Source: Patescibacteria group bacterium | Lineage (GTDB): Bacteria; Patescibacteriota; Patescibacteriia; UM-FILTER-42-10 | Reading direction: 5' to 3' | DNA length: 64,000 nucleotides | Assembly (NCBI GenBank): GCA_018825385.1 | Contig: JAHJEX010000006.1 | Span: 186 to 64,185 of the forward strand | Part shown: positions 1-32,855 of the stretch, in pieces | Position numbering within the stretch: position 1 is the first letter of the stretch | Layout: each line of letters starts with the position of its first letter | The notes under the pieces: model-generated | Told to the model about the DNA's origin: nothing | Seen by the model: the letters and a program-made list of their open reading frames with translations, nothing else | Database searches by the model: none | Made by a program: the position numbers and the translations under genes

Positions 1-20
1 CAGGCCTAACAGTTTTCAAG

Positions 21-263
21 ACTGTCCCATTCGACCGCTCTGGCACTCCTCCATATACTATTTGCGAACTTTAATAAAATTTACTAATTAGCAGTTTTTC
101 CCGCCGTAGGCGGTGGCAAGACTGTCCCATTCGACCGCTCTGGCACTCCTCCATATACTATTTGCGAACTTTAATAAAAATTTACTAATTAGCAGTTTTT
201 CCCGCCTTTGGCGGGACCCCGCCGTAGGCGGTGGCAAGACTGTCCCATTCGACCGCTCTGGCC
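21..263. repeat. tandem direct repeat: ~100-bp unit, about 2.4 copies (21-120; 121-239 with 1-nt and 17-nt insertions; partial 240-263)
   Basis: The unit recurs almost exactly and starts actgtcccattcgaccgctctggcactcc... Each unit ends with a short GC hairpin (ccgcc-gta-ggcgg). Copy 2 gains an extra hairpin (cccgcc-tttg-gcggg). The sequence between repeat cores is identical, so this is not CRISPR. Confidence 0.8.
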
Positions 264-309
264 CGCTTCGCTCTCGCGAAGCGAGGTGAGCACTCTTTCA
301 TTTTTTAGA

Positions 310-5176: not shown

Positions 5177-5713
5177 TTAAAGCCCAATTGAGAGTACTTT
5201 TATTTCGTAAGCCTGAAAGCTTGTCTTTCCATAAATATTTTCATCAGCCTCTGCAATAATATTATCTCCTATCTGGATATCACTTATTTGAATTGATTTT
5301 TCTCGTTCATATTCCTCACCCTCTTCCAGCGAATCAGGATTAACAGGCGGTTTCGTAATATCTATTTTGCGAAAAATAGTGCTTTCTGTAGTAGTAATAT
5401 TAACGGTCTTTTCAACGGAAATATCATTTTCAGCTACTTTTGCGGTAATATCGATCTGATTACCGTTTACTCCTGTTACCTGGCCTTTGTATGCAGTAAT
5501 GTTTTTTGCTTCTTCATACTCATAACCAGCTGGTTGTATGGCCACTTGCTGAGTGCTCGGCTCTACAGCCTTTTCATCCGCATTGCTTTGTCCCCATTGA
5601 TATCCCACTATTAAAGTGACGGTTGCAACAATCACAGTAATTATTGTAGCAGTGAGAGCTACTTTTTCACAACTTTTCAAAAAAGTACTTTGATTACTTT
5701 TGCTGGTTGACAT
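5177..5713 (-). CDS. hypothetical signal-anchored secreted protein
   Basis: Single N-terminal TM helix; the rest is hydrophilic. No recognisable motif. Confidence 0.5.
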   Translation of the reverse strand: MSTSKSNQSTFLKSCEKVALTATIITVIVATVTLIVGYQWGQSNADEKAVEPSTQQVAIQPAGYEYEEAKNITAYKGQVTGVNGNQIDITAKVAENDISVEKTVNITTTESTIFRKIDITKPPVNPDSLEEGEEYEREKSIQISDIQIGDNIIAEADENIYGKTSFQAYEIKVLSIGL

Positions 5714-5847
5714 TTCTTTTTACTTATGTTAGAATAACTAATATACTATTGGCTATTTTCAGATTATATTATATAATTTTATTGGATGTTTTGTCAAAGC
5801 GGGTGCAAATAGATGCGTGGTAATTTCTCCCTTTAACAGATAAAAAT

Positions 5848-7428
5848 ATGAAGAAAAAAAACAAAAAATCATTGATAGCAGCTTCCCTGAAGGCAAGTAA
5901 GGTAGCTGTTTTTTGTTTAATTGTAGCGGGTTTTGGCATAGTTGGAGGGATTATCACCCCAAATGTGTTTGCAGCTGTTTGGCAATCTCCAACCGTCACT
6001 CCTCCTGATTTCCCTGCAGAATTAGAACCTCCACTAAACACATCCGTATTTGTCCAAGAAAAGAAGGGCGGTCTTAGTGTAGCAACTCTAGACGGTAGTT
6101 TAGGTGTGGGAACAACAGTTGTGGGCACAAACAAGCTATATGTGAATGGTACTACTTATTTAGAAGGAAATGTCGGTATCGATGGGACTTTGAGTGTTTC
6201 AGCAACGGCAAGCGTTTTAGATTTACTGACTAACAGTGCAACAGTAGCCAATGATTTGAATGTTAATAGCGGATTGCTTAGCGTAAATAGCAGTAGTAAT
6301 TCTATTTTTATAAATGCCATAAATGATTTTGGGATAGTAAACATTGCTGCGGGAGATGAGTCAGGAATATTTGCAAAAAACAATTCTAGCAGTAACGCAG
6401 CTATACAAGGGGTTAACAATTCTTTGCTAGGAGGCACTGGTGTTTATGGATATGGTCAAGAATATGGTATATGGGGGGTCTCTTCTACAAAATACGGCGT
6501 GTTAGCTGATGCAAGAGATTTTGGAGCAGGAGGATTATATGCAAGAGGAGGAGACACTCGCTACGGAGCTGTTGGCCGGGGATTATATGGAGTTATAGGT
6601 TTGGATAATACAGAAGATGTTAATAACCCCACATTCAATGGTCCTGCTGAAACTCTAGCCGGATTGTTTGAGGGGTCTGTTGAAATAGTGCCAAGTGCCG
6701 GAGGAAATGCAGACTTGACTGTTAACAGTGATACGTTTGTTGTTGACTCTTCTACAAATAGAGTAGGAATTGGCACAAATAGTCCAATTGTTGCACTTCA
6801 TACCATAGGTGTTAGTGACCAATCAGCCGTTTACGCTCAGGCGGGAACAAACACAATGTGGCAAGATTATGATGGTCCCACTGCAACGGTGGCCGGTATA
6901 TATGGTGAAGGAGGAACTGTTACCTATGATGGTGCTGGAACAGGTTGGAATTTTGGCGTGTTTGGTAAGGCAGGTGATCCGGGGTCAGGAAGATCTGTAG
7001 GGATTATGGGATCCGATTTCAATGGAGTCGGCGATACATATGCCGGATGGTTTGATGGCAAAGTTGAAGTTGAAGGACAGGTGTCTGTCAGTGGTAAATT
7101 AAGCACCTTATCCAGTTTAGAAGTTGCTGGAGATATGGTTGGATACGGTGGTTTAAATCTCACTGGTGATATTGATATTTATGGAGATATCACATATTTA
7201 GGGAAACTAAGAATGGACGGCGGACTTCTGGTAATGCAAGGCGGAACGACATGTGATGTTGGACCTGACAACTATGCTGAAGGTACTATGTTTGTGTGTC
7301 ATTTCTGCCCAACCCCAACAGGACAGCGTAAGCATTCAGTAATGGCGAGAATGAATGGAGTATGGATCGATATTGGGTATACATTAGGGGATGCTTGTAA
7401 TGCTGGTCCTTATGTACCAGAAACATAG
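5848..7428 (+). CDS. secreted Gly/Asn/Thr-rich beta-repeat protein, paralog 1 (tail-fibre/adhesin-like)
   Basis: Signal peptide ending VFA|AVWQSP. Repeats LYVNGTTYLEGN, NRVGIGTNSP. C-terminal CxxC (VCHFCP). Roughly 60-70% identity to paralog 2, including near-identical nucleotide stretches. Confidence 0.75.
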   Translation: MKKKNKKSLIAASLKASKVAVFCLIVAGFGIVGGIITPNVFAAVWQSPTVTPPDFPAELEPPLNTSVFVQEKKGGLSVATLDGSLGVGTTVVGTNKLYVNGTTYLEGNVGIDGTLSVSATASVLDLLTNSATVANDLNVNSGLLSVNSSSNSIFINAINDFGIVNIAAGDESGIFAKNNSSSNAAIQGVNNSLLGGTGVYGYGQEYGIWGVSSTKYGVLADARDFGAGGLYARGGDTRYGAVGRGLYGVIGLDNTEDVNNPTFNGPAETLAGLFEGSVEIVPSAGGNADLTVNSDTFVVDSSTNRVGIGTNSPIVALHTIGVSDQSAVYAQAGTNTMWQDYDGPTATVAGIYGEGGTVTYDGAGTGWNFGVFGKAGDPGSGRSVGIMGSDFNGVGDTYAGWFDGKVEVEGQVSVSGKLSTLSSLEVAGDMVGYGGLNLTGDIDIYGDITYLGKLRMDGGLLVMQGGTTCDVGPDNYAEGTMFVCHFCPTPTGQRKHSVMARMNGVWIDIGYTLGDACNAGPYVPET

Positions 7429-7438
7429 AAAGATTTAA

Positions 7439-9010
7439 ATGAAAGAAGCACTTAAAAAGTTTAATAAAACAGCAACTATCAGTGTTTGCATTGCTCTATT
7501 ATGTCTTATTGCTGGATTCGGTGTGAATATTGTAATAGCGGCTACTTGGCAGGACCCAGCCGTAGCACCTCCTCATTTAGGCAGTTTGGAACCCGTTCTT
7601 AATACATCTCTATATGCTCAGGAGAAAATAGGGGGGCTTAATATAGCAACTCAAGACGGTAGTCTGGGTGTGGGTACTACAGTAGTGGGCACAAACAAAC
7701 TGTATGTGGGGGGCACTACTTTTTTGGAAGGAAATGCGGATATTAATGGCGATCTGAGTGTTTCAGCATCAACAAACGTTTTAGATTTACTGACTGACAG
7801 TGCAACAGTAGCCAATGATTTGAATGTTCATGGTGGCTTATTGAATGTTGATAGTGCAACTAATTCCATCTTTATTAACAGTATAAATAATTCAGGTTTG
7901 CTAAATGTAGAAGCAGAAGATGGATCAGGAATAGTTGCTATTAATAATTCTAACAGTAATGCAGCCATACAGGGAGTTAATGATTCTGTGGTAGGAGGGA
8001 CAGGCATTTATGGATATGGCTTGGAGTATGGAATATCCTCACGTAGTAGCACAGGATACGGGATCCTAGCAGATGCAAAGGATACTGGAATAGGGGGTGT
8101 ATTTGCAAGAGGAAGAGATACTGGTTATGGACTTATTGCTAGAGGATCGTACGGAGTTGTGGGGTTTGATAATACAGAAAACATAGACAACCCTGTTTTT
8201 AGCGGTCCTGGCACAACACTGGCAGGATTATTTGAAGGTTCTGTAGACATAATTCCAAGCGCTGGAGGAAATGCAGATTTGGGAGTAAATGCAAATACGC
8301 TTTTTGTAAGTTCTTTTACTGACAAAGTTGGAGTTGGTACAGGCAACCCTGCTACCAAACTACATATTTGGGGAGCAAGCGACCTTTCAGCAACGTATGC
8401 GAAGGCAGGGGTAAATACTGCAGTAGCGGAATATGATGGTCCCACTGCAACGGTGGCCGGTATATATGGCGAAGGAGGAACTGTTACCTATAGTGGCTCA
8501 GGAACGGGTTGGGATTTTGGCGTGTTTGGCAAGGCAGGTAACCCGGGGGTAGGCAGATCAGTGGGAGTGATGGGAGTAGAAGATGGAGGAGGTAGTGACC
8601 AAACTTTTGCAGGCTGGTTTGATGGAGATTTGATAATAGGTGATTCACTAGAAACGGGTGAATATACTTCAGCGGGTGAACTGGAAATTGCTGGTGATAT
8701 GATTGGGAATGGTGATCTCAGTCTTACGGGTAATATTGTCGGGCAAGAGGATATCGCGTATTTTGGGAAGCTAAAAATGACCGGGGGGCTTCCGTTTATA
8801 CATGGTAGATTATTTACATGTGATCTGGCTCCGACAAATTATGCTGAAGGTACTATGTATGTTTGTGCCTGGTGCCCTTCTCTAGAGGCAAGTCGTTTCT
8901 TTGCACTAAAGGTGCGTATGAATAGAACTTGGGTAACTCTTGGCTACACGAAAGGAGGTCGCTGTAGTGGATCTTACGACCCTGAAGTCCCGGTTGACTC
9001 GCTACCATAG
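7439..9010 (+). CDS. secreted Gly-rich beta-repeat protein, paralog 2
   Basis: Same architecture as 5848-7428. Shares IAATWQDP, LYVGGTTFLEGN, DGPTATVAGIYGEGGTVTY, VCAWCP. Confidence 0.75.
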   Translation: MKEALKKFNKTATISVCIALLCLIAGFGVNIVIAATWQDPAVAPPHLGSLEPVLNTSLYAQEKIGGLNIATQDGSLGVGTTVVGTNKLYVGGTTFLEGNADINGDLSVSASTNVLDLLTDSATVANDLNVHGGLLNVDSATNSIFINSINNSGLLNVEAEDGSGIVAINNSNSNAAIQGVNDSVVGGTGIYGYGLEYGISSRSSTGYGILADAKDTGIGGVFARGRDTGYGLIARGSYGVVGFDNTENIDNPVFSGPGTTLAGLFEGSVDIIPSAGGNADLGVNANTLFVSSFTDKVGVGTGNPATKLHIWGASDLSATYAKAGVNTAVAEYDGPTATVAGIYGEGGTVTYSGSGTGWDFGVFGKAGNPGVGRSVGVMGVEDGGGSDQTFAGWFDGDLIIGDSLETGEYTSAGELEIAGDMIGNGDLSLTGNIVGQEDIAYFGKLKMTGGLPFIHGRLFTCDLAPTNYAEGTMYVCAWCPSLEASRFFALKVRMNRTWVTLGYTKGGRCSGSYDPEVPVDSLP

Positions 9011-9037
9011 AATTACAAAACTTAAGGATAAATAATT

Positions 9038-10549
9038 ATGAGAAAAATGATTACCAAACTAAATAAAACAGCAATTATCAGTGTTAGCATTGCAGTATTA
9101 AGTTTGGCGGTTGGTCTGGGGGTGAATATGGTATTTGCCGCCTGGACCACCCCTTCGGAATCCCCTCCGGGGGGTGATATTGCCGCTCCGATCAATGTTT
9201 CAGGTGCGGACCAAGGCAAAATTGGAGGCCTTCGATTGGGAAGTAGTAATTTACCACCTGCGCCGTATATGCTTTATGTTGATGGGGATGTGTTTGTGGA
9301 AGGGAGCATAGTACCCGGTTCAGCCGGCAGTTACACCATCGGAAATGAAACGGTGGGTTCTTGGGATGAACTTTGGCTGAATTCCGATGCTGACGGAGGA
9401 ATATTGGAAAATGGTATTCACTTCGCCGATCCTTCTGTTGGTATTAGGTATGATACGGCGAATAACAGATTTGATTTTTATAAGGATTCAGTTGTACTTT
9501 CAATAGGCGATAATGGCGATCTAAATACAGTGGGAGGTATTACTGCCGCAGGCGGGATGAATATTGATTCTAATACTTTGGTTGTAAATAATGCGAATAA
9601 CAGAGTTGGTGTTGGCACGGCTTCGCCTACTTATGCACTGGACATTGATTCCGGAGACATGAGTATTGCAAACGGCCGTCTTGTTATTGGTTCGCCGACA
9701 TTTCCTGATGCAGATTCAACACTTTATGTCGGAACCTCAGCAAATCCTGTTTCAACAGTTAGAGCAATAGCGGCCTATACTGACAAGGATACTCCTGAAG
9801 GCGCAGTATCAACAATCTATGGAAATAACATGGGAAATAACTGGAAAGCGGCGGTTGAAGGGGAGTCACATTTTGGTTATGGGATACTTGGAATAACTGA
9901 ATCTGGCGGCAGGGCAGGAGTGATCGGATTCAATTATGGTTACAGGCGACAAGGTGAAGCTGGTGAGCCAGTTGGAACTGATTTTGCTGCCGCGACAAAA
10001 GGGAGGAGTTGTGTGGATTCAAGTTGTGACGGTTTTGGCAGCGGTTGGTATGGTAGTACTACCGCAGCCAGACCTATCAGAGCTACAGGTGTATTTGGGG
10101 AAGGTTCTCATACAGATCTTTCCCAGGGTTATATTTATACATATGGCGTTTATGCAATGGCGGGGCGTGCCAGTGCCGGTTCAAGTTCCGAGCATATTTA
10201 TACATATGGACTTTATGCTACTGAAGGGGCAGAAACAAATGGCGGTGTGAGTTATGCAGGGTATTTTGCGGGCGACGTGCATGTAGAGGGCAATTTAACC
10301 ACAGATGCAGGATCCAGTGTTGGGATTGGTACGACAGAATTAACGGATGCCCTGCGTGTCGGAGGCAATTTACGGGTGGATAGTGAAGATACAGATCCTG
10401 CCTATTTGCAAATGGATACAAGAAGTGGAGCACCTGTTATCGCTGATTGTGATGCTGCAGATGAAATTGGAAGAATGGTTTTTGATACGAATAGCAATCT
10501 TTTGTATGTGTGCGATGATAGCGGATGGCTATCTGCTACACTCAACTGA
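9038..10549 (+). CDS. secreted Gly-rich beta-repeat protein, paralog 3 (divergent)
   Basis: Same N-terminal signal and AAWTTPSESPP start. NRVGVGTASPTYALDIDSG motif. Different C-terminus (CDAADEIGRMVFDTNSNLLYVCDDSGW). Confidence 0.7.
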   Translation: MRKMITKLNKTAIISVSIAVLSLAVGLGVNMVFAAWTTPSESPPGGDIAAPINVSGADQGKIGGLRLGSSNLPPAPYMLYVDGDVFVEGSIVPGSAGSYTIGNETVGSWDELWLNSDADGGILENGIHFADPSVGIRYDTANNRFDFYKDSVVLSIGDNGDLNTVGGITAAGGMNIDSNTLVVNNANNRVGVGTASPTYALDIDSGDMSIANGRLVIGSPTFPDADSTLYVGTSANPVSTVRAIAAYTDKDTPEGAVSTIYGNNMGNNWKAAVEGESHFGYGILGITESGGRAGVIGFNYGYRRQGEAGEPVGTDFAAATKGRSCVDSSCDGFGSGWYGSTTAARPIRATGVFGEGSHTDLSQGYIYTYGVYAMAGRASAGSSSEHIYTYGLYATEGAETNGGVSYAGYFAGDVHVEGNLTTDAGSSVGIGTTELTDALRVGGNLRVDSEDTDPAYLQMDTRSGAPVIADCDAADEIGRMVFDTNSNLLYVCDDSGWLSATLN

Positions 10550-10570
10550 TTGTCTTAGTGAATAGTAATT

Positions 10571-12826
10571 ATGCAAAAACACAAAAAGAAATTAGTCATT
10601 TTCAGTACGGGGGTTTTTCTCTTAGTGTTAGTTGTTGTAGCGATCTTTAACATAACAAAGGTATCTGCGGATCAACCGCCTTGGGATGAAACAAATGTTT
10701 CCGGCTGGAACTGGTCGGGAATTGCAACCGAAAATAGTGCGCCAGGCGTTCCTGAATTCACTCACATCGGCTGGTTTAGCAATAACTGTTACAACTATTT
10801 TTCTACAGGCATGGAAAGCCGTTGTGGTGCTGACTTTGGAGTTAGAGTTGATCCCGTCACAGGCAACATTTCAGGTTATAGCTGGAATGGGATATTAGAT
10901 GACTCTGGTGCTGTAACAGGTGTTGGCTGGCTGGACTTTGACCCTCAACCTTTTCCTGGGCCACCATACTACGAAGCAAGAATTGAACCAGTTGGTTCAA
11001 CTTATGAAGGTCAAGTTTCAGGCTGGGCACGCATCAAATCAATAAAAGAACAGGGAGAATACCTAGGGTACGAAGATTGGGGATGGATTCTGTTAGGACC
11101 GGAGCCAGGTCCAAACCGCCAGTTCGGAGTAAATATAAACTCTACGACTGTGTCAGGATACGCATGGGCAGGCGGATATCTGGCTGGCGACCAATTACTT
11201 CCCGACCCTTATGAGAATGTTACTACCGGCTTGGGCTGGATCTCATTTGATACTGGCGATGCAAGTTATATTCTACCTGGTGAATTAGGTGAATTATCAG
11301 GTCATGCCTGGATGGGAAATTCTGATTCACTTGACCCGTCTTTTGACGCCAATATCGGCTGGGTTTCACTAAATTGTGGATCTGGTGGAACTACTGGGGA
11401 AGATATTTGTAAAGACACAAGTTACAAAGTACTTGTCAATAATTCAACGGGGGAAATATCTGGGTATGCTTGGATCGGAGAATCATCAGATGGTAATCCG
11501 ATTGGCTGGATAAATTTTGATCCTAATCCATATCCGGCAGGTCCAAACTATTCAGCAAAAGTTTTTTTAGAACAACAAACTGCAATCGACGATCCGTATG
11601 GTACCTATCAAAAGGGTGATGTAGTCGGATGGGCCCGACTAGTTTCATTAAAAAAAGAAGGAGCAAAGGGACATTTTGAAAATTGGGGCTGGGTAAAAAT
11701 GCATACAAGCGGTACTGAAGTTGAATACGGAGTATCCATGGATACTGATTCAGGGATTTTTGATGGATATGCTTGGTCAGGCGGGGGTACTGTATGTGTG
11801 GGCGCAGTATGTTATGATAACAGTGTGGGTTTAGGATGGATTTCCTTTCAGGACTATAGTGGTGTAAGTCAATTGCCACCGACCTACGTTGCACCGTTCC
11901 TAGAAACGGTGCAAGGGGACATTTATTCTAAAGTTGGGGTTGGATCTGGGGAAATATTCAGTCTTCCTACAAGCCCTTTGACTTCAGAGCTTTTCTATAA
12001 TTCGACCTTTTTAATACAGTCTGGTGGTGATATTGAACGCTATTCCAGTGAAAATGTTTCTGCTGATGATATTGAAGATTATTGGCGGAATTACCCCGAA
12101 TCTTTTGAACCTCCACTGGCTACTAACAAATATACAAATGTAATGGGCAAATTGGATGTTGACGGAATTACTTTTTCTGAGCAAGTATCCGCCGGTATTT
12201 TTGAAAATAAGTTTGGGACTATTGTTGAGGAATATTCAGGGGACACTTCAATAGAGGATTTATGGTTAGATGGTCTTTCTAAACTGCAGGGCAAGGTATA
12301 TTATATTCATGAGGGCGACCTCACCATAAATATACCAATGATAATTGATAATGGTAATGATGTTACTAATGATATTGCCTCAGGCACATTTATTGTTGAC
12401 GGCGACATGTTTATTGAAAAAGACATCACCTATGATTCACTCATTGTTGGAGAAAGTTATGTTGAGTTGGAAGATATTCCATCAGTTGTATGGATAGTAA
12501 AAGGAAATGTATATGTGAGTCCAAATGTGGCGGAAGTAGTGGGAAGTTTCGTAGTAGTTGGTAAAGAAAAAGACGGTGCATTAGAAGCTGGAACTGGTGA
12601 ATTTTATTCAGGAGCTGGAGATGTGAATTTAATAGTAAATGGATTGGTAGTCGCACATGAACTGTTCTTGCAAAGATCGGGAATTGGCACAGTCGAAAAT
12701 ATACAGGCCTCAGAGAGTATCTTCTATGATGGTAGGATAATCATTAATACACCGCCCGGGGTTGGAGATTTTGCAAAAGCACTACCTGTTGTCAGGGAAG
12801 TGGCGCCAATAGAGATTAGTCCATAA
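10571..12826 (+). CDS. large secreted protein with at least 8 copies of a novel G[YH]AW...GW[IL][SN]FD repeat and a C-terminal beta-rich domain
   Basis: N-terminal TM/signal. Repeats SGYSWNG...GVGWLDFDP, SGYAWAGG...GLGWISFDT, SGHAWMGN...IGWVSLNC, SGYAWIGE...IGWINFDP, DGYAWSGG...GLGWISFQD, interleaved with VSGWARI...WGW modules. Confidence 0.7.
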   Translation: MQKHKKKLVIFSTGVFLLVLVVVAIFNITKVSADQPPWDETNVSGWNWSGIATENSAPGVPEFTHIGWFSNNCYNYFSTGMESRCGADFGVRVDPVTGNISGYSWNGILDDSGAVTGVGWLDFDPQPFPGPPYYEARIEPVGSTYEGQVSGWARIKSIKEQGEYLGYEDWGWILLGPEPGPNRQFGVNINSTTVSGYAWAGGYLAGDQLLPDPYENVTTGLGWISFDTGDASYILPGELGELSGHAWMGNSDSLDPSFDANIGWVSLNCGSGGTTGEDICKDTSYKVLVNNSTGEISGYAWIGESSDGNPIGWINFDPNPYPAGPNYSAKVFLEQQTAIDDPYGTYQKGDVVGWARLVSLKKEGAKGHFENWGWVKMHTSGTEVEYGVSMDTDSGIFDGYAWSGGGTVCVGAVCYDNSVGLGWISFQDYSGVSQLPPTYVAPFLETVQGDIYSKVGVGSGEIFSLPTSPLTSELFYNSTFLIQSGGDIERYSSENVSADDIEDYWRNYPESFEPPLATNKYTNVMGKLDVDGITFSEQVSAGIFENKFGTIVEEYSGDTSIEDLWLDGLSKLQGKVYYIHEGDLTINIPMIIDNGNDVTNDIASGTFIVDGDMFIEKDITYDSLIVGESYVELEDIPSVVWIVKGNVYVSPNVAEVVGSFVVVGKEKDGALEAGTGEFYSGAGDVNLIVNGLVVAHELFLQRSGIGTVENIQASESIFYDGRIIINTPPGVGDFAKALPVVREVAPIEISP

Positions 12827-12953: not shown

Positions 12954-14063
12954 ATGGCACTATTTAGCTCAAAAAAAAGTTATATCGGAATTGATTTGGG
13001 AACATCCAGTATTAAGGTTGTTGAGTTAGAAAGCGAAAAGGGGAAACCGAAACTGATAACCTACGGTTTTGCTGAACAGTCGACAGATATTGTGAAAAGT
13101 GATTCTCAAGAAGTTCAAAAGGAAGTTGTGGCAACTTTAAAAGCAATAATGTCAAAGGCAAAAGTTACAACACCCAAAGCGATAGCAGCCTTGCCTAGTT
13201 TTGCGGTGTTCAGTTCAATTATTAGTTTGCCGGCTATGTCTAAAAAGGACTTAGTAGCTGCAGTCCGCTGGGAAGCAAAAAAGTTTGTTCCAATGCCCTT
13301 AGAGGAAATGATTCTAGACTGGAAAGTATTAGATGGTGGTAAGAGTGAGGAGAAAGATGGCAAGAAAGACAAAAAAAAGGAGAAAAAGGAGAACGCTATT
13401 CAACCCACAGGCGGATCAAAGAATTTCAAAGTACTGTTAACAGCTGCTCCCAAAACATTGGTCAAAAGGTATGTTGATATATTTAAGCAAGCAAACCTCC
13501 AATTGGTGAGTTTAGAAACTGAATCATTTGCCTTGGAGCGTTCGTTAATTGGGAATGATCGTTCAGCAACTATGATTGTAGATATTGGTGCTATTGCCTG
13601 CGATATTAGTGTTATTGTAGATGGCGTACCAATTCTGAATCGCAGTGTTGATATTGGGGGCAATACAATAACAAAGGCAATCGCAAATAGTCTTAATGTA
13701 AATCTAGAACGCGCAGAACAATTTAAGAGGGACTTTGGTATTTCTGGAGCTGGTGATTCATCGCAGGGACAAATTCCACGGACAATTGAATTTATTGTTA
13801 GTTCAATAGTCAATGAGATAAAATTTGTTCTCAACTTGTATCAGAATCAAGGAGAAAAACCTATTGAAAAAGTTGTACTAGCCGGTGGCTCTTCCTTTCT
13901 TCCTAATCTTACTAAATATTTAGAAAAAGTACTTAATATCAAAGTGTTTATCGGGGATCCCTGGGCACGCGTTGTGTATCCAATTGATTTGAAGCCAGTA
14001 TTGCAAGAACTAGGTCCTCGGTTTGCTGTTTCAATAGGGTTAGCAATGAGAGAAATAATTTAA
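12954..14063 (+). CDS. pilM: type IV pilus assembly ATPase-like protein PilM
   Basis: Actin-like fold start YIGIDLGTSSIKVVELE. PilM length and position ahead of pilN/pilO. Contains a Lys-rich internal insertion. Confidence 0.85.
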   Translation: MALFSSKKSYIGIDLGTSSIKVVELESEKGKPKLITYGFAEQSTDIVKSDSQEVQKEVVATLKAIMSKAKVTTPKAIAALPSFAVFSSIISLPAMSKKDLVAAVRWEAKKFVPMPLEEMILDWKVLDGGKSEEKDGKKDKKKEKKENAIQPTGGSKNFKVLLTAAPKTLVKRYVDIFKQANLQLVSLETESFALERSLIGNDRSATMIVDIGAIACDISVIVDGVPILNRSVDIGGNTITKAIANSLNVNLERAEQFKRDFGISGAGDSSQGQIPRTIEFIVSSIVNEIKFVLNLYQNQGEKPIEKVVLAGGSSFLPNLTKYLEKVLNIKVFIGDPWARVVYPIDLKPVLQELGPRFAVSIGLAMREII

Positions 14064-14072
14064 AATCATCTA

Positions 14073-15248
14073 ATGGATATAAATCTTCTAAAAGATAAAG
14101 AGGCGATAGGAGAAAAGTCAAGAAAAAAGACCGGAGGTGTTGGTATTGAGTTGACCCGACCGAATAAAGAAAAAGATGAAACAAAAAAACGCGTGAAAAA
14201 AGGTGGAATGTCCGAATTCTTTGCCAAGCTTTTTAAGAGAAAGAAAAAAGAGAGAATTCTATCACAGAAGGTCGTGAAAAAAGAAGAAAAAGTAAAGAAG
14301 ATAAGCCACGAAAAGATAAAAGAATCAAAAAAAATCCAGTCAGCTGGTGTATTGCAAGTTGAAATTGACAAAAAAACAAGTGCTGCAGAGAAATTAGTTA
14401 CTGATGAACCAAGTCCAACTAATGTGGAAAAGCGAGAGTTAAAAAGCATAGACAGAGATATCAGCGAAATGGAATCCAAACCTGAAATCCTAGAAAAAGA
14501 GGAAGATAAAAAACCCAGAAAAAAGTTCTTTACCTGGTCCTCTCCGGAAGATGATTCAAAAAACAAAAAAAATATTGTCGCTAATAAAAAGGAAGATACG
14601 AAAAATGGCATTGATAAAAAACTGACGAAAGTAATACCATTAGAAGAGAAAATACAATCACTGGATGTGAACCTTATTCCTGATGATGTTTTAGTTAAGC
14701 TTGAACCAAAATCAAAGCTTAGACAATTAGGGCTGGCGGTGATTATTATCGCTGTCCTAGTTGGTCTGATATATGGATATATGATGTATAGAGAATCAAA
14801 GATAGAAGGTGATATACAAGTAGTGGTGGTCGAAATCGAAAGCGTTGAACAGGAACTAAACAATCTAGGATATATCAGGGAAAGCGCATTGGTGTTAAAA
14901 AAGCAGATTGATTCTGTATCACAGTTGTTGAATGTTCACATTTACTGGTCGCAGTTTTTAGAATATCTTGAAAAATATACCTTGCCGGATGTTTATTACA
15001 AGAACTTAGCGGCAACAAAAGCAGGAATAGTAACATTATCAGCCTCAGCAGTAGATTTAGCGACTCTCGCTGATCAATACTTAATATTTCAAAATGCGTC
15101 TGATTTTGTAGAAAGTGTAACAATTGAAAGCGCGGTATCAGCACAGAATACTGAAGACAATGAAATAGGCTCAGGTGCAGTGGATTTCAATATCTCGTTA
15201 ACTATAAATCCTGACACTTTTTTCCTTAAAGATGATTTGCCGTTATGA
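14073..15248 (+). CDS. pilN: PilN-like bitopic pilus assembly protein with ~210-aa Lys/Glu-rich N-terminal extension
   Basis: Single TM helix (LGLAVIIIAVLVGLIYGYMMY) followed by a ~150-aa periplasmic domain. Position between pilM and pilO. The N-terminal half is low-complexity and K/E-rich. Confidence 0.6.
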   Translation: MDINLLKDKEAIGEKSRKKTGGVGIELTRPNKEKDETKKRVKKGGMSEFFAKLFKRKKKERILSQKVVKKEEKVKKISHEKIKESKKIQSAGVLQVEIDKKTSAAEKLVTDEPSPTNVEKRELKSIDRDISEMESKPEILEKEEDKKPRKKFFTWSSPEDDSKNKKNIVANKKEDTKNGIDKKLTKVIPLEEKIQSLDVNLIPDDVLVKLEPKSKLRQLGLAVIIIAVLVGLIYGYMMYRESKIEGDIQVVVVEIESVEQELNNLGYIRESALVLKKQIDSVSQLLNVHIYWSQFLEYLEKYTLPDVYYKNLAATKAGIVTLSASAVDLATLADQYLIFQNASDFVESVTIESAVSAQNTEDNEIGSGAVDFNISLTINPDTFFLKDDLPL

Positions 15249-15871
15249 GTTATTCATTTAAAAATAAAGTTTTTTCATTCATTGTAAAATACTTCAGATT
15301 TATTCTAGGGGCAGTTGTTATATTTCTTCTGGTTCTAAGTACTTACCTCATAATTTTGCCTAAATACAAGCAGATAGCTGATGAAGGATATCTAGACTAC
15401 GAACAGAAACAACAAACTCTCGAAGCGAAGAAAAATGAATTAAGAGAATTGCAGAAACTGCAGGAAGAACTTTCACAAATAACCACGGTTGAGATGGAGC
15501 GTTTAGAGAGGATATTACCTTCCTCTAAAGATATTCCGGATATCTTTTTACAAATGGAAAGTCTGGCGAGAGAAAGTGGACTGACAGTGAGTAGGGTAAG
15601 TATTGCAGAAACAAGTGGACGATCGAGTAATTCCAATTCTTCTGCTGCAAAAAATAGTGAAACAAATGTGAATCAGGCCGGTGGCATTCAGACGATTACC
15701 ATTTCACTGTCCGTAGAAGGAAATACTACTTATGATTCATTAAAAATACTGTTAGATAACATTGAAGACAATATGCGTATTGTTGATCTTGATTCACTTT
15801 CATATTCGCCACCAGAAACAGAAGGGGACAGCTCATTTTCAGTGAATCTTGCTACTTATTATCTGGAATAA
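15245..15871 (+). CDS. pilO: PilO-like pilus assembly protein
   Basis: N-terminal TM helix, then a coiled-coil (QKQQTLEAKKNELRELQKLQEEL), then a C-terminal domain. The 4-nt overlap with the upstream gene suggests translational coupling. Confidence 0.65.
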   Translation: MSYSFKNKVFSFIVKYFRFILGAVVIFLLVLSTYLIILPKYKQIADEGYLDYEQKQQTLEAKKNELRELQKLQEELSQITTVEMERLERILPSSKDIPDIFLQMESLARESGLTVSRVSIAETSGRSSNSNSSAAKNSETNVNQAGGIQTITISLSVEGNTTYDSLKILLDNIEDNMRIVDLDSLSYSPPETEGDSSFSVNLATYYLE

Positions 15872-15883
15872 TAATATTTATAT

Positions 15884-16753
15884 ATGCTAGTCCAAAAAAA
15901 ATCACAGAAAAGAAATATAATCCTTGGGGCAATCTTTGCTGTTTTGATTGTTGTAATGATATTTGTTTTAAATATGGGTCCCAGTGGTTCTGACGATGAC
16001 TTATTGAATGGCGTGTTGAATAATGAGAGTGTAGTAATATTACCGGCTGTTGTAGATATTGACAGTGCTTTTTTTGGAAAAAAGGATGTGGTTGGATTGC
16101 GTGATAGAAGTGGGCAACGCTATGTTGGACAATTTGCAAGTACTCCCACAGATTCCCAAATCACTCCAGCACCGGAAGGGGCATATATACTAAATATACA
16201 AGTCGGTGAAAAACTGATACTTTATTGGGATTTTAGTTCTAGATATGTTGCAGTTAAAATATATAGATCAGAAACGCAAGAGAAAAAAGGGGAATTGATT
16301 GCGGAAGTGTCCAATAGAAACTACTACCAGGATACTGGCATTGAAAATGGAGTTTACTACTATTACACGCTTATTGCAGTAGGGGCTAATGGTCAGGAAT
16401 CTGATGATTCTGTTAAAATGACCGGCAGTCCAACTGATATTTTTGCTCCACAAAGCCCAGTGGGATTAGCAGTTGCAGATTCAACGGATGGAAATCAAGT
16501 ACAAATTTCTTGGGTTGATCCTAAGGATAATGATTTTGCGTATGTTCGTATCTATCGCTCACAGATTGAAGGTAGTCTGGGAACTTTAATACTAGATAAA
16601 GCGGTTGAAAACAATACCTACGTGGACAAAAATGTTCTTGAAGATGTTGAATATTTTTATACTATTACATCGGTGGATACCTCAGGAAATGAATCTGAAA
16701 AATCGTTGTTACCTGTTGGTGGGAATAACAATCCGTTTCAACCATTATTTTAA
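15884..16753 (+). CDS. membrane-anchored protein with two fibronectin type III-like domains, pilus-associated by context
   Basis: N-terminal TM helix. Two FN3-like modules (LILYWDFSS...YYYYTLIAVGANGQES; VQISWVDP...YFYTITSVDTSGNES). Confidence 0.6.
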   Translation: MLVQKKSQKRNIILGAIFAVLIVVMIFVLNMGPSGSDDDLLNGVLNNESVVILPAVVDIDSAFFGKKDVVGLRDRSGQRYVGQFASTPTDSQITPAPEGAYILNIQVGEKLILYWDFSSRYVAVKIYRSETQEKKGELIAEVSNRNYYQDTGIENGVYYYYTLIAVGANGQESDDSVKMTGSPTDIFAPQSPVGLAVADSTDGNQVQISWVDPKDNDFAYVRIYRSQIEGSLGTLILDKAVENNTYVDKNVLEDVEYFYTITSVDTSGNESEKSLLPVGGNNNPFQPLF

Positions 16754-16770
16754 TTAGCAATAGATCATCA

Positions 16771-18537
16771 ATGGCAATCCCAAAACCAAACACAAATCAA
16801 AGCGAAGCAGTTGATCCTCTAGTAGAGGCCTTACTTGAAGGTAAATATATCAGCCAGACACAATACGCAGATGCACAAGAAAAGAGCAAAGCCTTGGCCG
16901 TATCTGTTCTTCAGGTTATCTCTGAGGAAAATATGGTTCCAGATGAAGAATTTGCTAAAGTAAAAAGCAAAGTATATGGAGTTCCTTTCATGGACCTATT
17001 TGGCAAGATGATTCGTTCAGATATTTTAAACATAATCTCACACGAACTCGCTCAAAACTACAAAATGGTTGCTTTCAATAAGGAAGCCAATGAGGTAAGT
17101 ATTGCTATGCTTCAGCCAAACGATTTTCATGCACTGGAAGCAGTAGAATTTTTAGCTAGGAAGAATCAATACAAAATAAAATATTATGTTACCTCGCAAG
17201 GAGCTTTTAACCATGTTCTTAAGCAATATGCAACGCTATCAGAAGAAGTGGAGCAAGCATTAAAAGGAACAGAAGCGGAAGCAAAAGCTGCTGAAGAAGG
17301 TATAGAATTAGCTGAAAAAGGACTGGAAGAGGTCATTAAAAAAGCACCAGTATCCAAAATGGTTTCAGTTATATTAAGGCATGCAGTTGAAGGAAGAGCA
17401 TCAGATGTCCATATCGAGCCGGTAGGAAATGAAACACGCGTACGTTATCGTATTGATGGTGTATTACATACGTCTTTGATTCTGCCAAAACATGTGCATC
17501 CATCTGTAGTGGCTCGTATTAAAGTGCTTTCTAATTTGAAAATTGATGAAACGAGAATACCTCAGGACGGTCGTTTTCGAATGAGCATTGATGGAAAGGA
17601 TATAGACTATCGTGTTTCAACGTTGCCACTTATTAATTATGAAAAAGTGGTAATGCGTATTCTAGACACAACTGAGGGAGGTAAGAAACTAGAAGATTTG
17701 GGTTTTGACGGTAGGAATGCAGAAGTGATGAGAGAAAATATCAAAAAAAGCCATGGAATGTTCTTGGTAACCGGTCCAACAGGTTCTGGTAAGTCAACAA
17801 CACTCTATTCTATTTTAACCGTTATGAATCAGGAAGGAGTGAATATAGTTACCTTGGAAGATCCGGTAGAATATTATTTAGCTGGAATTAATCAATCCCA
17901 AATCAATGCTGACGTTGGATTAACATTTGCTCGTGGTTTGAGGGCAATCTTGCGTCAGGATCCAGACGTAATCATGGTTGGAGAAATACGTGATAATGAA
18001 ACAGCAGAACTTGCAGTACACGCAAGTTTGACAGGCCACATAGTGCTTTCTACCCTACATACTAACGACGCGTTTGGTGCTATACCCAGATTAATTGACA
18101 TGAAGATTGAGCCCTTTCTAGTATCTTCATCTACAAATGTTATTATTGCCCAGAGACTTGTTCGGAGTATTTGTACTTATTGTAAGGCGGAAACGACAGT
18201 GCCAGAAGAATTAGAAAATGAAATATGGGTTGAATTAGAAAAGATTCCAAAGGCAGCGATTCCCGAAGACGTAAATGCCACCCGTCCTCTAAAGTTCTAC
18301 AAAGGAAAAGGATGTGCTCGTTGTGAGCATACTGGTTATAAGGGAAGACTGGCAATCTCAGAAGTATTAGAAATCAATGATGTGTTAGAAAAAATAATTA
18401 TGTCTGGAAGCAACACTGATGAAATAAAAGAAGAATTCAAAAAGCAAGGAATGATTTCACTTAAAGAAGATGGCATAATTAAAGCACTTCAGGGCAAAAC
18501 TACTATTCAGGAAGTCTGGAATGTTACAAGAGAATAA
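16771..18537 (+). CDS. pilB: type IV pilus assembly (extension) ATPase PilB / GspE family
   Basis: N-terminal GspII-like domain. Walker A GPTGSGKSTT. Walker B/Asp box DPDVIMVGEIRD. Tetracysteine motif CTYC...CARC. Confidence 0.9.
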   Translation: MAIPKPNTNQSEAVDPLVEALLEGKYISQTQYADAQEKSKALAVSVLQVISEENMVPDEEFAKVKSKVYGVPFMDLFGKMIRSDILNIISHELAQNYKMVAFNKEANEVSIAMLQPNDFHALEAVEFLARKNQYKIKYYVTSQGAFNHVLKQYATLSEEVEQALKGTEAEAKAAEEGIELAEKGLEEVIKKAPVSKMVSVILRHAVEGRASDVHIEPVGNETRVRYRIDGVLHTSLILPKHVHPSVVARIKVLSNLKIDETRIPQDGRFRMSIDGKDIDYRVSTLPLINYEKVVMRILDTTEGGKKLEDLGFDGRNAEVMRENIKKSHGMFLVTGPTGSGKSTTLYSILTVMNQEGVNIVTLEDPVEYYLAGINQSQINADVGLTFARGLRAILRQDPDVIMVGEIRDNETAELAVHASLTGHIVLSTLHTNDAFGAIPRLIDMKIEPFLVSSSTNVIIAQRLVRSICTYCKAETTVPEELENEIWVELEKIPKAAIPEDVNATRPLKFYKGKGCARCEHTGYKGRLAISEVLEINDVLEKIIMSGSNTDEIKEEFKKQGMISLKEDGIIKALQGKTTIQEVWNVTRE

Positions 18538-18569
18538 ATAATAAAACAATAGAATTAAAAGAAACAACT

Positions 18570-18965
18570 ATGCAAACAACTGGAGCTGAATTAAATAAAA
18601 AGAAGATAGTTCTTGTGGAGGATGATTCTTTTTTGGCAGGGATGTATGTGTCAAAGTTGAATTTAGAGGACTTTGAAGTAAAATTAGCGGAGAACGGAGA
18701 AGATGGTTTGAAACTGGCTACAGCAGAAATACCTGATTTGATTTTGCTGGATATTCTTTTGCCCAGAATGGATGGATTTGAGGTTTTAAAGAAGCTAAAG
18801 CAAAATCCATCAACTGCAGATATTCCAGTTATTTTGCTCACGAATTTAGGTCAAAAAAAGGATGTTGATCGAGGCTTGGCCTTGGGCGCGAAGGACTATC
18901 TTATTAAGGCGCACTTTATGCCTAATGAGGTTATTGCTAAAATAAAGAAAATTCTTAAAACCTAA
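18570..18965 (+). CDS. stand-alone response-regulator receiver (CheY-like) protein
   Basis: Acidic pocket VEDD. Phospho-acceptor Asp in ILLDILLP. T/K motifs ILLTNLGQ...DYLIKA. No output domain. Confidence 0.85.
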   Translation: MQTTGAELNKKKIVLVEDDSFLAGMYVSKLNLEDFEVKLAENGEDGLKLATAEIPDLILLDILLPRMDGFEVLKKLKQNPSTADIPVILLTNLGQKKDVDRGLALGAKDYLIKAHFMPNEVIAKIKKILKT

Positions 18966-18969
18966 ATTA

Positions 18970-20064
18970 TTGCAACAACCAGAATCGACTCTCAGGACGA
19001 ATGAGCAGATAGAGATAAATCGAATATTAACATCAGTGGCAGAGTATAATGCTTCTGATCTTCATCTTTCTGTTGGTAATGTTCCTACTGTCAGAATTGA
19101 CGGAGAACTAACTCCATTACGTGAAGAAAAGGTAATTACTCCAGATTTTTTGGAAAAACTAAAGCTTTTTCTTTTAGATGAAAAGCAAAGAGAAATACTT
19201 GAAACTGAAAGAGAGATAATCTTTTCATATAATTTTCAAAATCGTATTAGATTCAAAATTAATCTCTTTTATCAAGAAGGATATTTATCTGCTTCACTTC
19301 GACTTATAGCTTCAGATACCAAAACATTAGTTGAGCTTGGTCTTCCAAAAGCAGTTGAGCAGGTTACAAAACTTAACAAAGGTTTGGTAATAGTTTGCGG
19401 ACCGTTTGGTTCAGGACGCAGTTCTACTCTTGCTGCAATTTTGAACGAAATTAACGATAATAGGAATGAACATATTCTAACCATAGAGAAACCGATTGAA
19501 TATGTGTTTATGGACAACAAGAGTATAGTTGAACAAAGAGAAGTAGGAAGAGATACGCGTTCATTTGAAAGAGCTTTAAAGTCAGCTTTCCAGGAAGATA
19601 TAGATGTCATTCTAGTGGGGGATTTAAAGAACAAGGAAGTGATTAAAAGTGTCTTGGATCTTTCTGAGGGGGGGCGATTAGTATTTGGCGGGATGGATAC
19701 AGACTCTTCAATTAAAACTATTGAAAAACTAATAAACAGTTTTGATGCACAAGAACAACAACAAACAAGAGTTCAGCTTTCGGAGGTATTAGCAGGAATA
19801 ATTGTGCAAAGATTGTTGCCAAGAGTGGGTGGGGGCAGAATACTAGTGGCAGAAATACTTATTCCAACCCCTCCAGTGCGAGCTGTAATACGAGAAGGTA
19901 ATCTTCTTCAGCTAAACAATGTACTCCAGACTTCAAGAGAAGAAGGAATGATATCCCTAGACAGATCGCTGGCAGAATTGGTTAAGACTGGTGAAATATT
20001 ATTAGATAGTGCACTACAATATGCAGTTGATAAAAATAATTTACAAATGTTAGCACAACGCTAA
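18970..20064 (+). CDS. pilT: PilT-family retraction ATPase paralog with atypical Walker A (GSGRSS) and Walker B (VGDLKN)
   Basis: PilT N-terminus (ASDLHLSVGNVPTVRIDGE). P-loop GPFGSGRSSTL (Lys replaced by Arg). DVILVGDLKNKE (Glu replaced by Asp). TTG start. Confidence 0.8.
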   Translation: MQQPESTLRTNEQIEINRILTSVAEYNASDLHLSVGNVPTVRIDGELTPLREEKVITPDFLEKLKLFLLDEKQREILETEREIIFSYNFQNRIRFKINLFYQEGYLSASLRLIASDTKTLVELGLPKAVEQVTKLNKGLVIVCGPFGSGRSSTLAAILNEINDNRNEHILTIEKPIEYVFMDNKSIVEQREVGRDTRSFERALKSAFQEDIDVILVGDLKNKEVIKSVLDLSEGGRLVFGGMDTDSSIKTIEKLINSFDAQEQQQTRVQLSEVLAGIIVQRLLPRVGGGRILVAEILIPTPPVRAVIREGNLLQLNNVLQTSREEGMISLDRSLAELVKTGEILLDSALQYAVDKNNLQMLAQR

Positions 20065-20075
20065 ATAAATTTATT

Positions 20076-21284: not shown

Positions 21285-21367
21285 AGATTCTCGTCTTGTC
21301 ATTTTCATTTACTATTTGTCATTTTTCTGCTATAATAATTCGTGTTGATAACTAGCAAACTGTTATA

Positions 21368-21399
21368 TTGACAAAATGGTAAAATTGTAGTAGTATAAT
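21368..21399 (+). promoter_or_regulatory. candidate sigma70-like promoter for the pilin gene (TTGACA ... TATAAT; 20-nt spacer or alternative TAGTAT at 17 nt)
   Basis: Perfect -35 and -10 hexamers are visible but the spacing is non-optimal. Upstream direct repeats ttgtcatttt x2 at 21296-21330. Strong SD GGAGGTG lies before the ATG at 21460. Confidence 0.35.
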
Positions 21400-21459
21400 A
21401 GCATAACTAATTGATTACTTAACAATTAAAATAAAATAGAAAGGAAGGGAGGTGAACAA

Positions 21460-21924
21460 ATGAGAAACAAAAAAGGTTTTACATTAATCGAGTTGTTAGT
21501 TGTTATCGCAATTATTGGTCTTTTAGCCACAATTGCAGTAGTAGCATTAAACAGCGCAAGAACAAGTTCACGAGATGCTAAGAGGATTGCTGATGTCCGA
21601 CAGGTACAAACCGGGTTGGAGTTATATTTTAACGCCGAAACGGATTACCCAACTTGTACTACAGCTGCTACCGTCGCGAGTTTGGACGGTGCTGGTTGCG
21701 CCGATGGGATAACAACTTACGTTTCTGGAATCTCCAATGTTTATGATCCCTCGGGTGATGCAACTACCGCTGCTTGTCTTGTCGATGCTACCGGTACGTG
21801 TAACTATTCTTATCAAGGAGTTGCGGAGGGAGACAGCTATACCATTTTATTCTGGCTCGAAGGTGATTCCGGATCATTGACAGGAGGAGAGATTCATACA
21901 GCGAGTGACGCAGGTATACTTTAA
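21460..21924 (+). CDS. pilA: type IV major pilin (prepilin with class III signal peptide)
   Basis: MRNKKG|FTLIELLVVIAIIGLLATIAV is a canonical prepilin cleavage/methylation motif. 154 aa. Cys pairs in the C-terminal half. Confidence 0.9.
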   Translation: MRNKKGFTLIELLVVIAIIGLLATIAVVALNSARTSSRDAKRIADVRQVQTGLELYFNAETDYPTCTTAATVASLDGAGCADGITTYVSGISNVYDPSGDATTAACLVDATGTCNYSYQGVAEGDSYTILFWLEGDSGSLTGGEIHTASDAGIL

Positions 21925-24026: not shown

Positions 24027-24034
24027 AGCAAATA

Positions 24035-25909: not shown

Positions 25910-25912
25910 GTT

Positions 25913-26773: not shown

Positions 26774-26777
26774 AATT

Positions 26778-28833: not shown

Positions 28834-28886
28834 TAGCTATATCACGGTTATTAATATATCACTATCCTAAGAAATAAAATGTGTAT

Positions 28887-29924: not shown

Positions 29925-29930
29925 TTTATT

Positions 29931-32853: not shown

Positions 32854-32855
32854 TT

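Follow-up and report, generated by a model that had tools for sequence, protein, structure and literature searches.

Three tandem fibre-like proteins encoded upstream of type IV pilus genes in a Patescibacteria group bacterium are candidate host-attachment proteins

The DNA analyzed here, a 64,000-nucleotide stretch of contig JAHJEX010000006.1 (GenBank assembly GCA_018825385.1) from an uncultivated, ultra-small bacterium of the Patescibacteria group (CPR), referred to below as the window, raises the question of what is done by three consecutive genes, P1, P2, and P3, which encode leader-bearing, Gly/Asn/Thr-rich proteins and lie, with a fourth gene (P4), upstream of a type IV pilus operon. Most Patescibacteria are uncultivated and are thought to live attached to other microbes, and we know of no host-recognition determinant for most of them. 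A first-pass annotation of the window had described P1 to P3 as tail-fibre-like adhesins with signs of recent gene conversion. The reading preferred here, which is given a somewhat better than even chance, is that they are exported, beta-rich, fibre-type surface proteins, probably adhesins that are expressed with the type IV pili for host contact. It draws on sequence comparisons and on analogy with fibres of other systems.

Paralogy, leaders, and the capping-loop motif

The three genes are complete open reading frames (ORFs), exactly where the first-pass annotation had placed them:

5848-7428, plus strand: P1, ORF of 526 amino acids, predicted secreted fibre-like protein; leader at residues 1-42, predicted cleavage VFA↓AV
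7439-9010, plus strand: P2, ORF of 523 amino acids, paralogue of P1; leader at residues 1-34, predicted cleavage VIA↓AT
9038-10549, plus strand: P3, ORF of 503 amino acids, distant paralogue; leader at residues 1-34, predicted cleavage VFA↓AW

The description of the three genes as tandem paralogues with signal peptides was borne out by their paralogy and by Sec-type leaders seen in the sequence. P1 and P2 share 60% to 62% amino acid identity and 67% nucleotide identity, and P3 shares approximately 29% amino acid identity with P1. When the profile of P3 orthologues was aligned with that of P1/P2, hhalign gave a probability of 99.7% (E value, 1.3e-26) across the N-terminal ~200 residues. P3 had been regarded as diverged in its C-terminal half; it is indeed diverged, but over almost its whole length rather than in that half alone. 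The leaders, which were read directly off the sequence, start with a K-rich n-region and continue through ~22 hydrophobic residues to an AxA-like site (VFA↓AVWQ in P1, VIA↓ATWQ in P2, and VFA↓AWTT in P3), and the cleavage before A[AV]W(Q/T) proposed earlier thus describes P1 and P3 but not P2. No class III leader of the G↓FTLIE type was found in P1 to P3 by regular expression or direct reading, such leaders being present only in pilin genes (KGFTLIEL at 21472 and RGYTLLEM at 32892); since the leaders of P1 to P3 end in VFA↓A or VIA↓A, the possibility that these proteins are pilins was rejected. The mature proteins are acidic (D+E greatly exceeds K+R), contain 15% to 17% Gly, are rich in Gly, Thr, Ser, and Asn, and have four Cys each in conserved close pairs. 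With their leaders, paired Cys, and acidic all-beta composition, P1 to P3 look extracytoplasmic.

Behind the leaders, the three proteins share an N-terminal module, a fibre-type motif, and Cys-containing C-terminal domains:

5980-6075, plus strand: conserved N-terminal module of P1 (WQSPTVTPPDFPAELEPPLNTSVFVQEKKGGL)
7547-7639, plus strand: conserved N-terminal module of P2
9143-9232, plus strand: conserved N-terminal module of P3
6760-6801, plus strand: capping-loop-type motif of P1, RVGIGTNSPIVALH, residues 305-318
8324-8365, plus strand: capping-loop-type motif of P2, KVGVGTGNPATKLH, residues 296-309
9602-9643, plus strand: capping-loop-type motif of P3, RVGVGTASPTYALD, residues 189-202
10316-10357, plus strand: second, Pro-less capping-loop-type copy in P3, SVGIGTTELTDALR, at residue 427
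7252-7425, plus strand: C-terminal four-Cys domain of P1 (C469, C484, C487, and C517; ...NYAEGTMFVCHFCP...), assigned by Cys conservation
8819-9007, plus strand: C-terminal four-Cys domain of P2, assigned by Cys conservation
10448-10546, plus strand: shorter, two-Cys C-terminal version in P3 (DCD...GRM...LYVCDDSGW)

The N-terminal module, a Pro-rich stretch of ~35 residues just after the cleavage site, follows the pattern W-x2-P-x3-PP...P-[IL]-N-x-S-x3-Q-x-K-x-G-G-L. It is present in P1 to P3, in all of their orthologues, in the distant proteins P0028, P0030, and P0032, and in the 3,523-amino-acid protein P0037, whose gene fills its whole contig. A search of 5.8 billion proteins with the profile of the module gave a single weak match. 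The module carries an invariant N-x-S sequon (LNTS at 6037-6045, LNTS at 7601-7609, and INVS at 9197-9205), which is a possible glycosylation site. Farther along, P1 to P3 have corresponding segments, LYVNGTTYLEG (residues 97-107 of P1), LYVGGTTFLEG (P2), and LYVDGDVFVEG (P3). At the C terminus, the Cys positions are strictly or almost strictly conserved across 13 sequences, and the VC(H/A)(F/W)CP motif noted earlier for P1 and P2 was found as VCHFCP and VCAWCP.

The motif shared by P1 to P3 is R-V-G-[IV]-G-T-x2-P-x3-L-H. In the form first proposed, N[RK]VG[IV]GT.SP, it fits P1 (NRVGIGTNSP) and P3 (NRVGVGTASP), whereas P2 deviates (DKVGVGTGNP). The P1/P2 profile matched PDB entries 8OJN, 8ONB, and 8ONC at this motif with an E value of 0.011, and P0025, a protein with repeats of the motif, matched them independently with an E value of 0.0077. 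These entries show residues 632-922 of Bd3182, a fibre of the mosaic adhesive trimer (MAT) type from Bdellovibrio bacteriovorus. The intertwined trimeric beta-helix of this structure carries two capping loops, and R656-H669 (RVGVGTTAPTSALH) forms one of them (Caulton et al. 2024, PMC10769870). The capping-loop consensus, V-G-G/N-pi-x-x-P-x-x-x-L, also occurs in other MATs and in S74-type phage fibres (PMC10769870). Aligned to Bd3182 R656-H669 in 8OJN, the motifs of P1, P2, and P3 agree with the capping loop in both length and pattern.

The same VGIGTxxPxxxL unit is found in the "tail fiber protein" of Pelagibacter phage HTVC168P and in cyanophages, and the only match in a PHROGs scan of P1 to P4 was phrog_5906 (function unknown), which lies on the motif. 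An exhaustive hidden Markov model (HMM) search retrieved 3,742 proteins. Among the 150 matches listed, a few are full-length relatives, and all but a handful align only at profile positions ~278-320, which correspond to the 40-residue unit "...TFVVDSSTNRVGIGTxxPxxxLHV...". In other proteins, some of them longer than 3,000 amino acids, the unit recurs up to 29 times. The resemblance to tail fibres is therefore real at the level of a structural motif and goes no further.

Orthologues and gene conversion

P1 to P4 are identical to hypothetical proteins in metagenome-assembled genomes labeled "Patescibacteria group bacterium," P1 being 100% identical to KKB10_03490. A word-index search of the 5.8 billion proteins recovered 13 relatives for P1 and 9 for P3, a scan of GTDB genomes placed the family in two GTDB species only, and scans of GTDB genomes and JGI metagenomes with the P1/P2 and P4 profiles returned the same narrow clade. 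The same profiles had no match in viral contigs. In five other genomes (L001, L003, L005, L006, and L007), the gene order is the same as in the window, with ClpB, HtpX, LemA, and a small gene on one side and P1-P2-P3-P4-pilM-pilN-pilO on the other, and P4 occupies the equivalent position in every related genome. P2 orthologues form a separate clade, and P3 orthologues adjoin the P2 orthologues in the five other genomes. P1, P2, and P3 thus constitute a stable one-to-one orthologous trio in six genomes, each protein with its own leader. The orthologues of P1 to P3 share 49% to 65% identity, compared with 82% to 93% for ClpB, HtpX, PilM, and PilB; P1 to P3 are the fastest-evolving genes of the neighborhood.

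Two more distant loci, L012 and L013, in which P4 is 50% to 53% identical, have two fibre genes rather than three before P4 and pilM. In L013 (GCA_002784945.1, positions 7882-11471), these encode P0028, which is P1-like, and P0030 (644 amino acids), in which a P3-like N-terminal half is joined to a P1/P2-like C-terminal half; in L012, the P0030 gene is split into ORFs of 496 and 126 amino acids. The family is therefore modular, and the block is a stable neighbor of the pilus genes.

Within the trio of the window, the identity between P1 and P2 is mosaic, and the segments concerned are as follows:

6055-6459, plus strand: P1 residues ~70-204, donor of the main P1-to-P2 conversion tract
7619-8023, plus strand: P2 residues ~61-195, recipient of the main P1-to-P2 conversion tract
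6865-7011 (P1) and 8429-8575 (P2), plus strand: second high-identity patch, 86% nucleotide identity with a 38-nucleotide exact match

Over their whole length, P1 and P2 of the window share 60% amino acid identity, the pairs in the other genomes share 46% to 54%, and P2 of the window shares 46% to 55% with its own orthologues. A sliding comparison confined the excess identity to P2 residues ~61-196. In segment-wise neighbor-joining trees with 200 bootstraps, P1 and P2 of the window were sisters in 100% of the bootstraps for the tract segment, and the canonical separation of P1 from P2 was recovered in 0%; elsewhere, this separation was recovered in 100% (leader), 91% (middle segment), and 84% (C-terminal segment). 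The tract is 76% identical at the nucleotide level and 61% identical at third positions, compared with 46% to 54% and 31% to 45%, respectively, at the corresponding columns in the five other genomes. At diagnostic columns, P1 is always of the P1 type, whereas P2 changes from a P2-type leader to P1-type residues at ~64-163 and back to P2-type residues, with P2-type residues kept at positions 125 and 132 inside the patchy tract. This pattern indicates patchy conversion with P1 as the donor and P2 as the recipient. The mosaicism exceeds chance, since 20 successive codons for conserved residues are identical (permutation p value, 0.0007). A repeat search returned 6022-6321/7586-7885 at 76% identity and 6865-7011/8429-8575 at 86%. 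Exact nucleotide matches in the register +1564 were found at 6233-6264 and 7797-7828 (32 nucleotides) and at 6868-6905 and 8432-8469 (38 nucleotides). The near-identical stretches reported in the first-pass annotation (6215-6262/7781-7828 and 6868-6902/8436-8470) are therefore real, but their P2 coordinates were 2 to 4 nucleotides off.

P1 and P2 of the window also share a 20-residue deletion that is absent in all ten orthologues; it lies in a short tandem "xDINLTG" repeat, where parallel loss is possible. Conversion is possible as well in the second patch and is less certain there, because the region is also conserved among orthologues; the tree of this patch (columns 340-400) does not resolve. 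Among orthologues, variability is highest in the converted shaft segment. Assembly chimerism was rejected as the cause of the mosaic, since 76% identity is too low for the copies to collapse and identical or nearly identical proteins are present in several independent assemblies. Taken from the alignments, the segment trees, and the permutation test, the nucleotide identity of P1 and P2 is mosaic rather than uniform, as the first-pass annotation had suspected, and gene conversion, which ran from P1 to P2 in the main tract, is judged to be real, recurrent, and patchy. The word "recent" does not hold for the main tract, which is only 76% identical.

Several observations concern exchange elsewhere in the family. 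In L005, the P2 and P3 leaders (11692-11800 and 13392-13500) are nearly identical (MKK[VM][FY]K[QN]FNKTAIISVCIAILSIVVGLGVNIALAA), which suggests exchange between P2 and P3, and P1/P2 identity is raised at columns 220-400, an independent sign of exchange. P2 and P3 of the window are 71% identical over 104 nucleotides and 89% identical over 36 nucleotides at their 5' ends (7439-7542 and 9038-9141). Two strain variants of P2, P0176 and P0177 (>98% identical to P2 of the window), differ from it at 7 to 8 positions, six of which lie in residues 165-185 (7931-7993). At three of these six sites, P2 of the window has the residue of P1 of the window, and the variants have the residue of P2 orthologues at two of the three, which hints at very recent microconversion or recombination between strains.

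Pilus neighborhood and possible functions

The genes around the trio, and the promoter-like site upstream of it, are as follows:

10571-12826, plus strand: P4, ORF of 751 amino acids, Trp-rich repeats, own hydrophobic leader, between P3 and pilM
12954-21924, plus strand: type IV pilus genes pilM, pilN-like, pilO, FN3-like gene, pilB, response regulator, pilT, pilC, and major pilin
5707-5735, plus strand: promoter-like site upstream of P1, TTGACA-17-TAGAAT with a TG extension, 11/12 matches in a consensus scan

The promoter-like site lies in the divergent intergenic region and is a pattern match alone. The gaps between the genes are short (10 nucleotides for P1/P2, 27 for P2/P3, 21 for P3/P4, and 127 for P4/pilM), and a sequence scan found no convincing terminator-like site from P1 to pilM, the weak ones lying inside ORFs only. 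P1 to P4 and the pilus assembly genes thus form one co-oriented block that is predicted to be cotranscribed, which is considered likely. A Pfam match to PilO was seen in the window itself, while PilM_2, T2SSE, and Response_reg are precomputed Pfam matches on orthologues and were assigned in the window by position and length; the leader of the major pilin, KGFTLIEL, occupies 21472-21495. Set apart from the main pilus genes, at 32116-37288, are PilD, three minor pilins, and a 747-amino-acid PilX-like protein (within 32856-37288). P1 to P3 had been placed directly upstream of the pilus operon, but P4, which is also predicted to be secreted, intervenes. A type IV pilus operon follows P4, and the proposed association of P1 to P3 with the pilus comes solely from gene order in a narrow clade.

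Other features of the neighborhood are recorded here. The Trp-rich repeats of P4 read "SGYAW...GWI(S/D)F"; the protein also has six Cys in pairs, its C-terminal third is beta-helix-like, and it has no Pfam or NCBIfam family and no useful PDB sequence match. Its orthologues have 742 to 778 amino acids in most genomes and 1,108 to 1,112 in L001 and L005, which indicates that the repeat region expands. A membrane-anchored protein of 289 amino acids with FN3/Ig-like repeats (15884-16753), between pilO and pilB, and a stand-alone response-regulator receiver (18570-18965), between pilB and pilT, are kept in related loci. The pilus genes are split by a cluster of ~10 kb (22029-32114) whose translations look like O-antigen-ligase-like membrane proteins, glycosyltransferases, methyltransferases, a flippase-like protein, and a sugar transferase. 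The G+C content is 42% to 45% over P1 to P4 (6001-12000) and 35% to 38% in the flanks, which probably reflects Gly-rich coding content; given the synteny of the block in all relatives, a foreign origin is the less likely cause. At the edge of the window (17-269), three direct repeats, spaced ~100 to 118 nucleotides apart and 94% to 98% identical, each contain a GC-rich hairpin, CCCGCCGTAGGCGG. The minus strand of the repeat resembles the 5' half of a tRNA (GGAGTGCCAGAGCGGTCGAATGGGACAGTCTTG), and the repeats could be tRNA or integration-site remnants; ARAGORN and Rfam made no call on them.

Under the preferred reading, P1 to P3 would each consist of four parts, a Sec-type leader, the Pro-rich N-terminal module, a shaft, and a Cys-stabilized C-terminal tip. 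The N-terminal module may fasten the fibre base to the cell surface, and the shaft would be built of Gly/Tyr-rich beta segments and the capping-loop unit R-V-G-I/V-G-T-x2-P-x3-L-H, which in Bdellovibrio MAT fibres and S74-type phage tail fibres marks the limits of intertwined trimeric beta-helix segments. The pilus would make the first contact and pull the cell toward the host cell, and three fibres with differing tips would then provide close-range attachment. In this genome, a shaft segment of P1 has overwritten its P2 counterpart by patchy conversion, with the leaders and C-terminal halves staying distinct. The role in close-range attachment is proposed by analogy with the Bdellovibrio MAT fibres and with Saccharibacteria, in which type IV pili mediate host binding and further close-range surface adhesins have been proposed in a multistep model (PMC11623550).

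Several results weigh against this reading. No C-terminal peptidase S74 chaperone (SDxxxK) was found in P1 to P3 by Pfam, the C termini being four-Cys or two-Cys domains. Pfam and NCBIfam scans of P1 to P4 returned no family, Pfam giving none for P1 to P3 at an E value of ≤1. A tblastn search with P1 and P3 of 50,697 phage records gave no match, PDB sequence searches with P3 and its profile returned nothing useful, and the link to a solved fibre is a motif of 14 to 30 residues with a borderline E value of ~0.01. The AlphaFold 2 (AF2) monomer model of full-length P1 (13 sequences) had a predicted local distance difference test (pLDDT) score of 37 and an unusable fold, with an all-beta DSSP assignment. 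This failure is uninformative rather than negative, since an intertwined trimer is not expected to be modeled correctly from a single chain. The model of the C-terminal 131 residues had a pLDDT of 61 (63 to 80 across most of the Cys domain), and a Foldseek search with it of PDB and BFVD gave no match with an E value of <0.01, the top matches being generic hairpins or having a root-mean-square deviation of >20. The long hydrophobic segment of the leader could also be an uncleaved membrane anchor, and conserved gene order is modest evidence of a link to the pilus because the genomes are fairly close (ClpB, 85% to 89% identical). The tail-fibre or beta-helical likeness claimed in the first-pass annotation is thus upheld by the capping-loop motif and phrog_5906, but not by phage matches or by a confirmed fold (pLDDT, 37 and 61), and a trimeric fibre fold for P1 to P3 is the one that the motif would imply.

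Among the alternatives, the one that survives best, although it is considered unlikely, is that P1 to P4 are structural accessories of the pilus machine or the envelope, such as a collar or conduit that spans the envelope or S-layer and lets the pilus of a monoderm-like cell emerge, or S-layer-type wall proteins. It would account for the fixed position just upstream of pilM in every genome found, for a stoichiometric-looking trio kept as one-to-one orthologues, and for an N-terminal module conserved as a docking element would be, and inspection of the ORFs revealed no secretin or other outer component in the pilus operon. However, parts of a machine are usually conserved, whereas P1 to P3 evolve fastest in their surroundings, carry tail-fibre-type units and variable tips, and are represented in one relative by two genes with a chimeric architecture; in addition, Pfam and NCBIfam detected no SLH, CWB, or other wall-binding domain.

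A slightly smaller chance is given to the possibility that P1, P2, and P3 assemble into one heterotrimeric fibre rather than three homotrimers, with conversion keeping the shaft registers compatible. The strict one-to-one-to-one trio, the homology of the N-terminal ~200 residues, the homogenization of the N-proximal shaft, and the P2/P3 leaders of L005 are all consistent with it. Yet module length and order differ in P3, which has large insertions after residue 90 and capping loops at residues 189 and 427, compared with 305 in P1; a related lineage has two genes only; and known fibres with the capping-loop motif are homotrimers (PMC10769870). A more elaborate and improbable proposal is that the N-terminal module acts as a docking or sorting signal of a kind not described before, which couples the fibres to the type IV pilus apparatus of Patescibacteria, making a combined "grappling hook plus fibre" host-capture organelle. 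The fibre set might then be a P1:P2:P3 heterotrimer together with P4, and its tips would diversify for host range, with conversion maintaining the compatibility of the shafts.

Antigenic or host-range variation of the cassette type, in which frequent recombination among the tandem copies makes new surface variants, had been called typical of such a locus and is likewise assigned a low probability. The mosaic of P1 and P2 would fit it, as would the variability of the converted segment among orthologues, the independent signs of exchange in L005, and the clustering of strain differences in P2 residues 165-185. Nevertheless, all three genes are full length, with their own leaders and stable orthologous clades in six genomes, the tract is old, and the strain variants of P2 are nearly identical. 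The direct repeats that touch P1 to P3 are in-register P1/P2 and P2/P3 matches only, and all copies are complete ORFs. By inspection, the region up to 37 kb contains glycosyltransferase-like, pilD, and pilin genes. Neither silent cassettes nor template/variable repeat pairs of the diversity-generating retroelement (DGR) type were seen in the window, in which no search aimed at invertases or reverse transcriptases was made. A DGR or cassette system was rejected in view of the stable trio and because the repeats seen in the window include no such elements. A prophage remnant or phage-derived tail-fibre module, which the motif shared with phage tail-fibre proteins and phrog_5906 might suggest, was rejected as very unlikely, because the flanks are ClpB, HtpX, LemA, and pilus genes in one order in all relatives, no match was found in phage records or viral contigs, and P1 to P3 carry Sec leaders, which to our knowledge virion proteins lack.

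The locus offers concrete candidates for host recognition, namely, three fast-evolving fibre-like proteins with distinct tips that are encoded with pilus genes. If they are confirmed, the tips could help to predict the hosts of the lineage or to capture them, and similar proteins in other candidate phyla could be sought with the N-terminal module as a query. The clade is narrow, the function is deduced from sequence features, and it is no surprise in itself that such genomes encode fibre-like surface proteins, but P1 to P3 are plausible host-attachment proteins.

Comparison with known fibres and pilus-associated adhesins

Three kinds of known proteins invite comparison with P1 to P3. The first kind comprises non-pilin pilus-associated adhesins and large tip proteins, such as PilY1 of Pseudomonas and PilX2 of Nanosynbacter lyticus TM7x (PMC11623550). 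Like P1 to P3, they are large, are secreted, and have their genes among those of type IV pili, and for proteins of this type a role in attaching an episymbiont to its host has been proposed. P1 to P3 differ from them in having neither a class III leader nor a beta-propeller, and the window has its own minor pilins and PilX-like protein.

The S74-type fibres and tailspikes compared in PMC10769870 include the L-shaped fibre protein pb1 of phage T5 (PDB 4UW8) and the K1F endosialidase (PDB 3GW6). They have in common with P1 to P3 the capping-loop motif, which in the phage proteins lies on an intertwined trimeric beta-helix, a receptor-binding role, which is only predicted for P1 to P3, and mosaic exchange. 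In contrast, P1 to P3 have no S74 chaperone and no similarity to phage records, and they have Sec leaders and a chromosomal housekeeping context.

The closest parallel is with the non-S74 subgroup of the Bdellovibrio MAT fibres (PMC10769870). The similarity is limited to the motif (E value, ~0.01), and the crystallized C-terminal fragments of MATs end at residues 627 to 1,151, whereas P1 to P3, with ~500 amino acids, are half that length or less and have one or two capping loops instead of long repeated shafts. By description, the N-terminal modules are also distinct, being ~35 residues and Pro-rich in P1 to P3 and ~130 amino acids and beta-rich in MATs. The tips of P1 to P3 are small Cys-containing domains without a fold match, unlike those of MATs, and the cell is presumably monoderm-like, without an outer membrane. 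The P1 to P3 genes, unlike those of MATs, are in tandem inside a pilus operon, and their products are known from sequence, with a putative trimeric form. P1 to P3 are not filed as MAT members because the agreement established is that of the motif and they have no S74 domain. They are best described as a lineage-restricted family that is most like the non-S74 MAT/tail-fibre adhesins and cannot be assigned to them. The two groups nevertheless share a signal peptide (predicted in P1 to P3), a family-wide N-terminal module, a beta-rich shaft (putative in P1 to P3), and a variable tip; the RVG(I/V)GTxxPxxxLH capping-loop unit in length and pattern; and several paralogues per genome with a mosaic, module-swapping architecture. 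Bdellovibrio likewise lives by attaching to other bacteria and uses type IV pili, and the fibre repertoire with which this predator recognizes its prey is the parallel in which P1 to P3 may find their counterpart.

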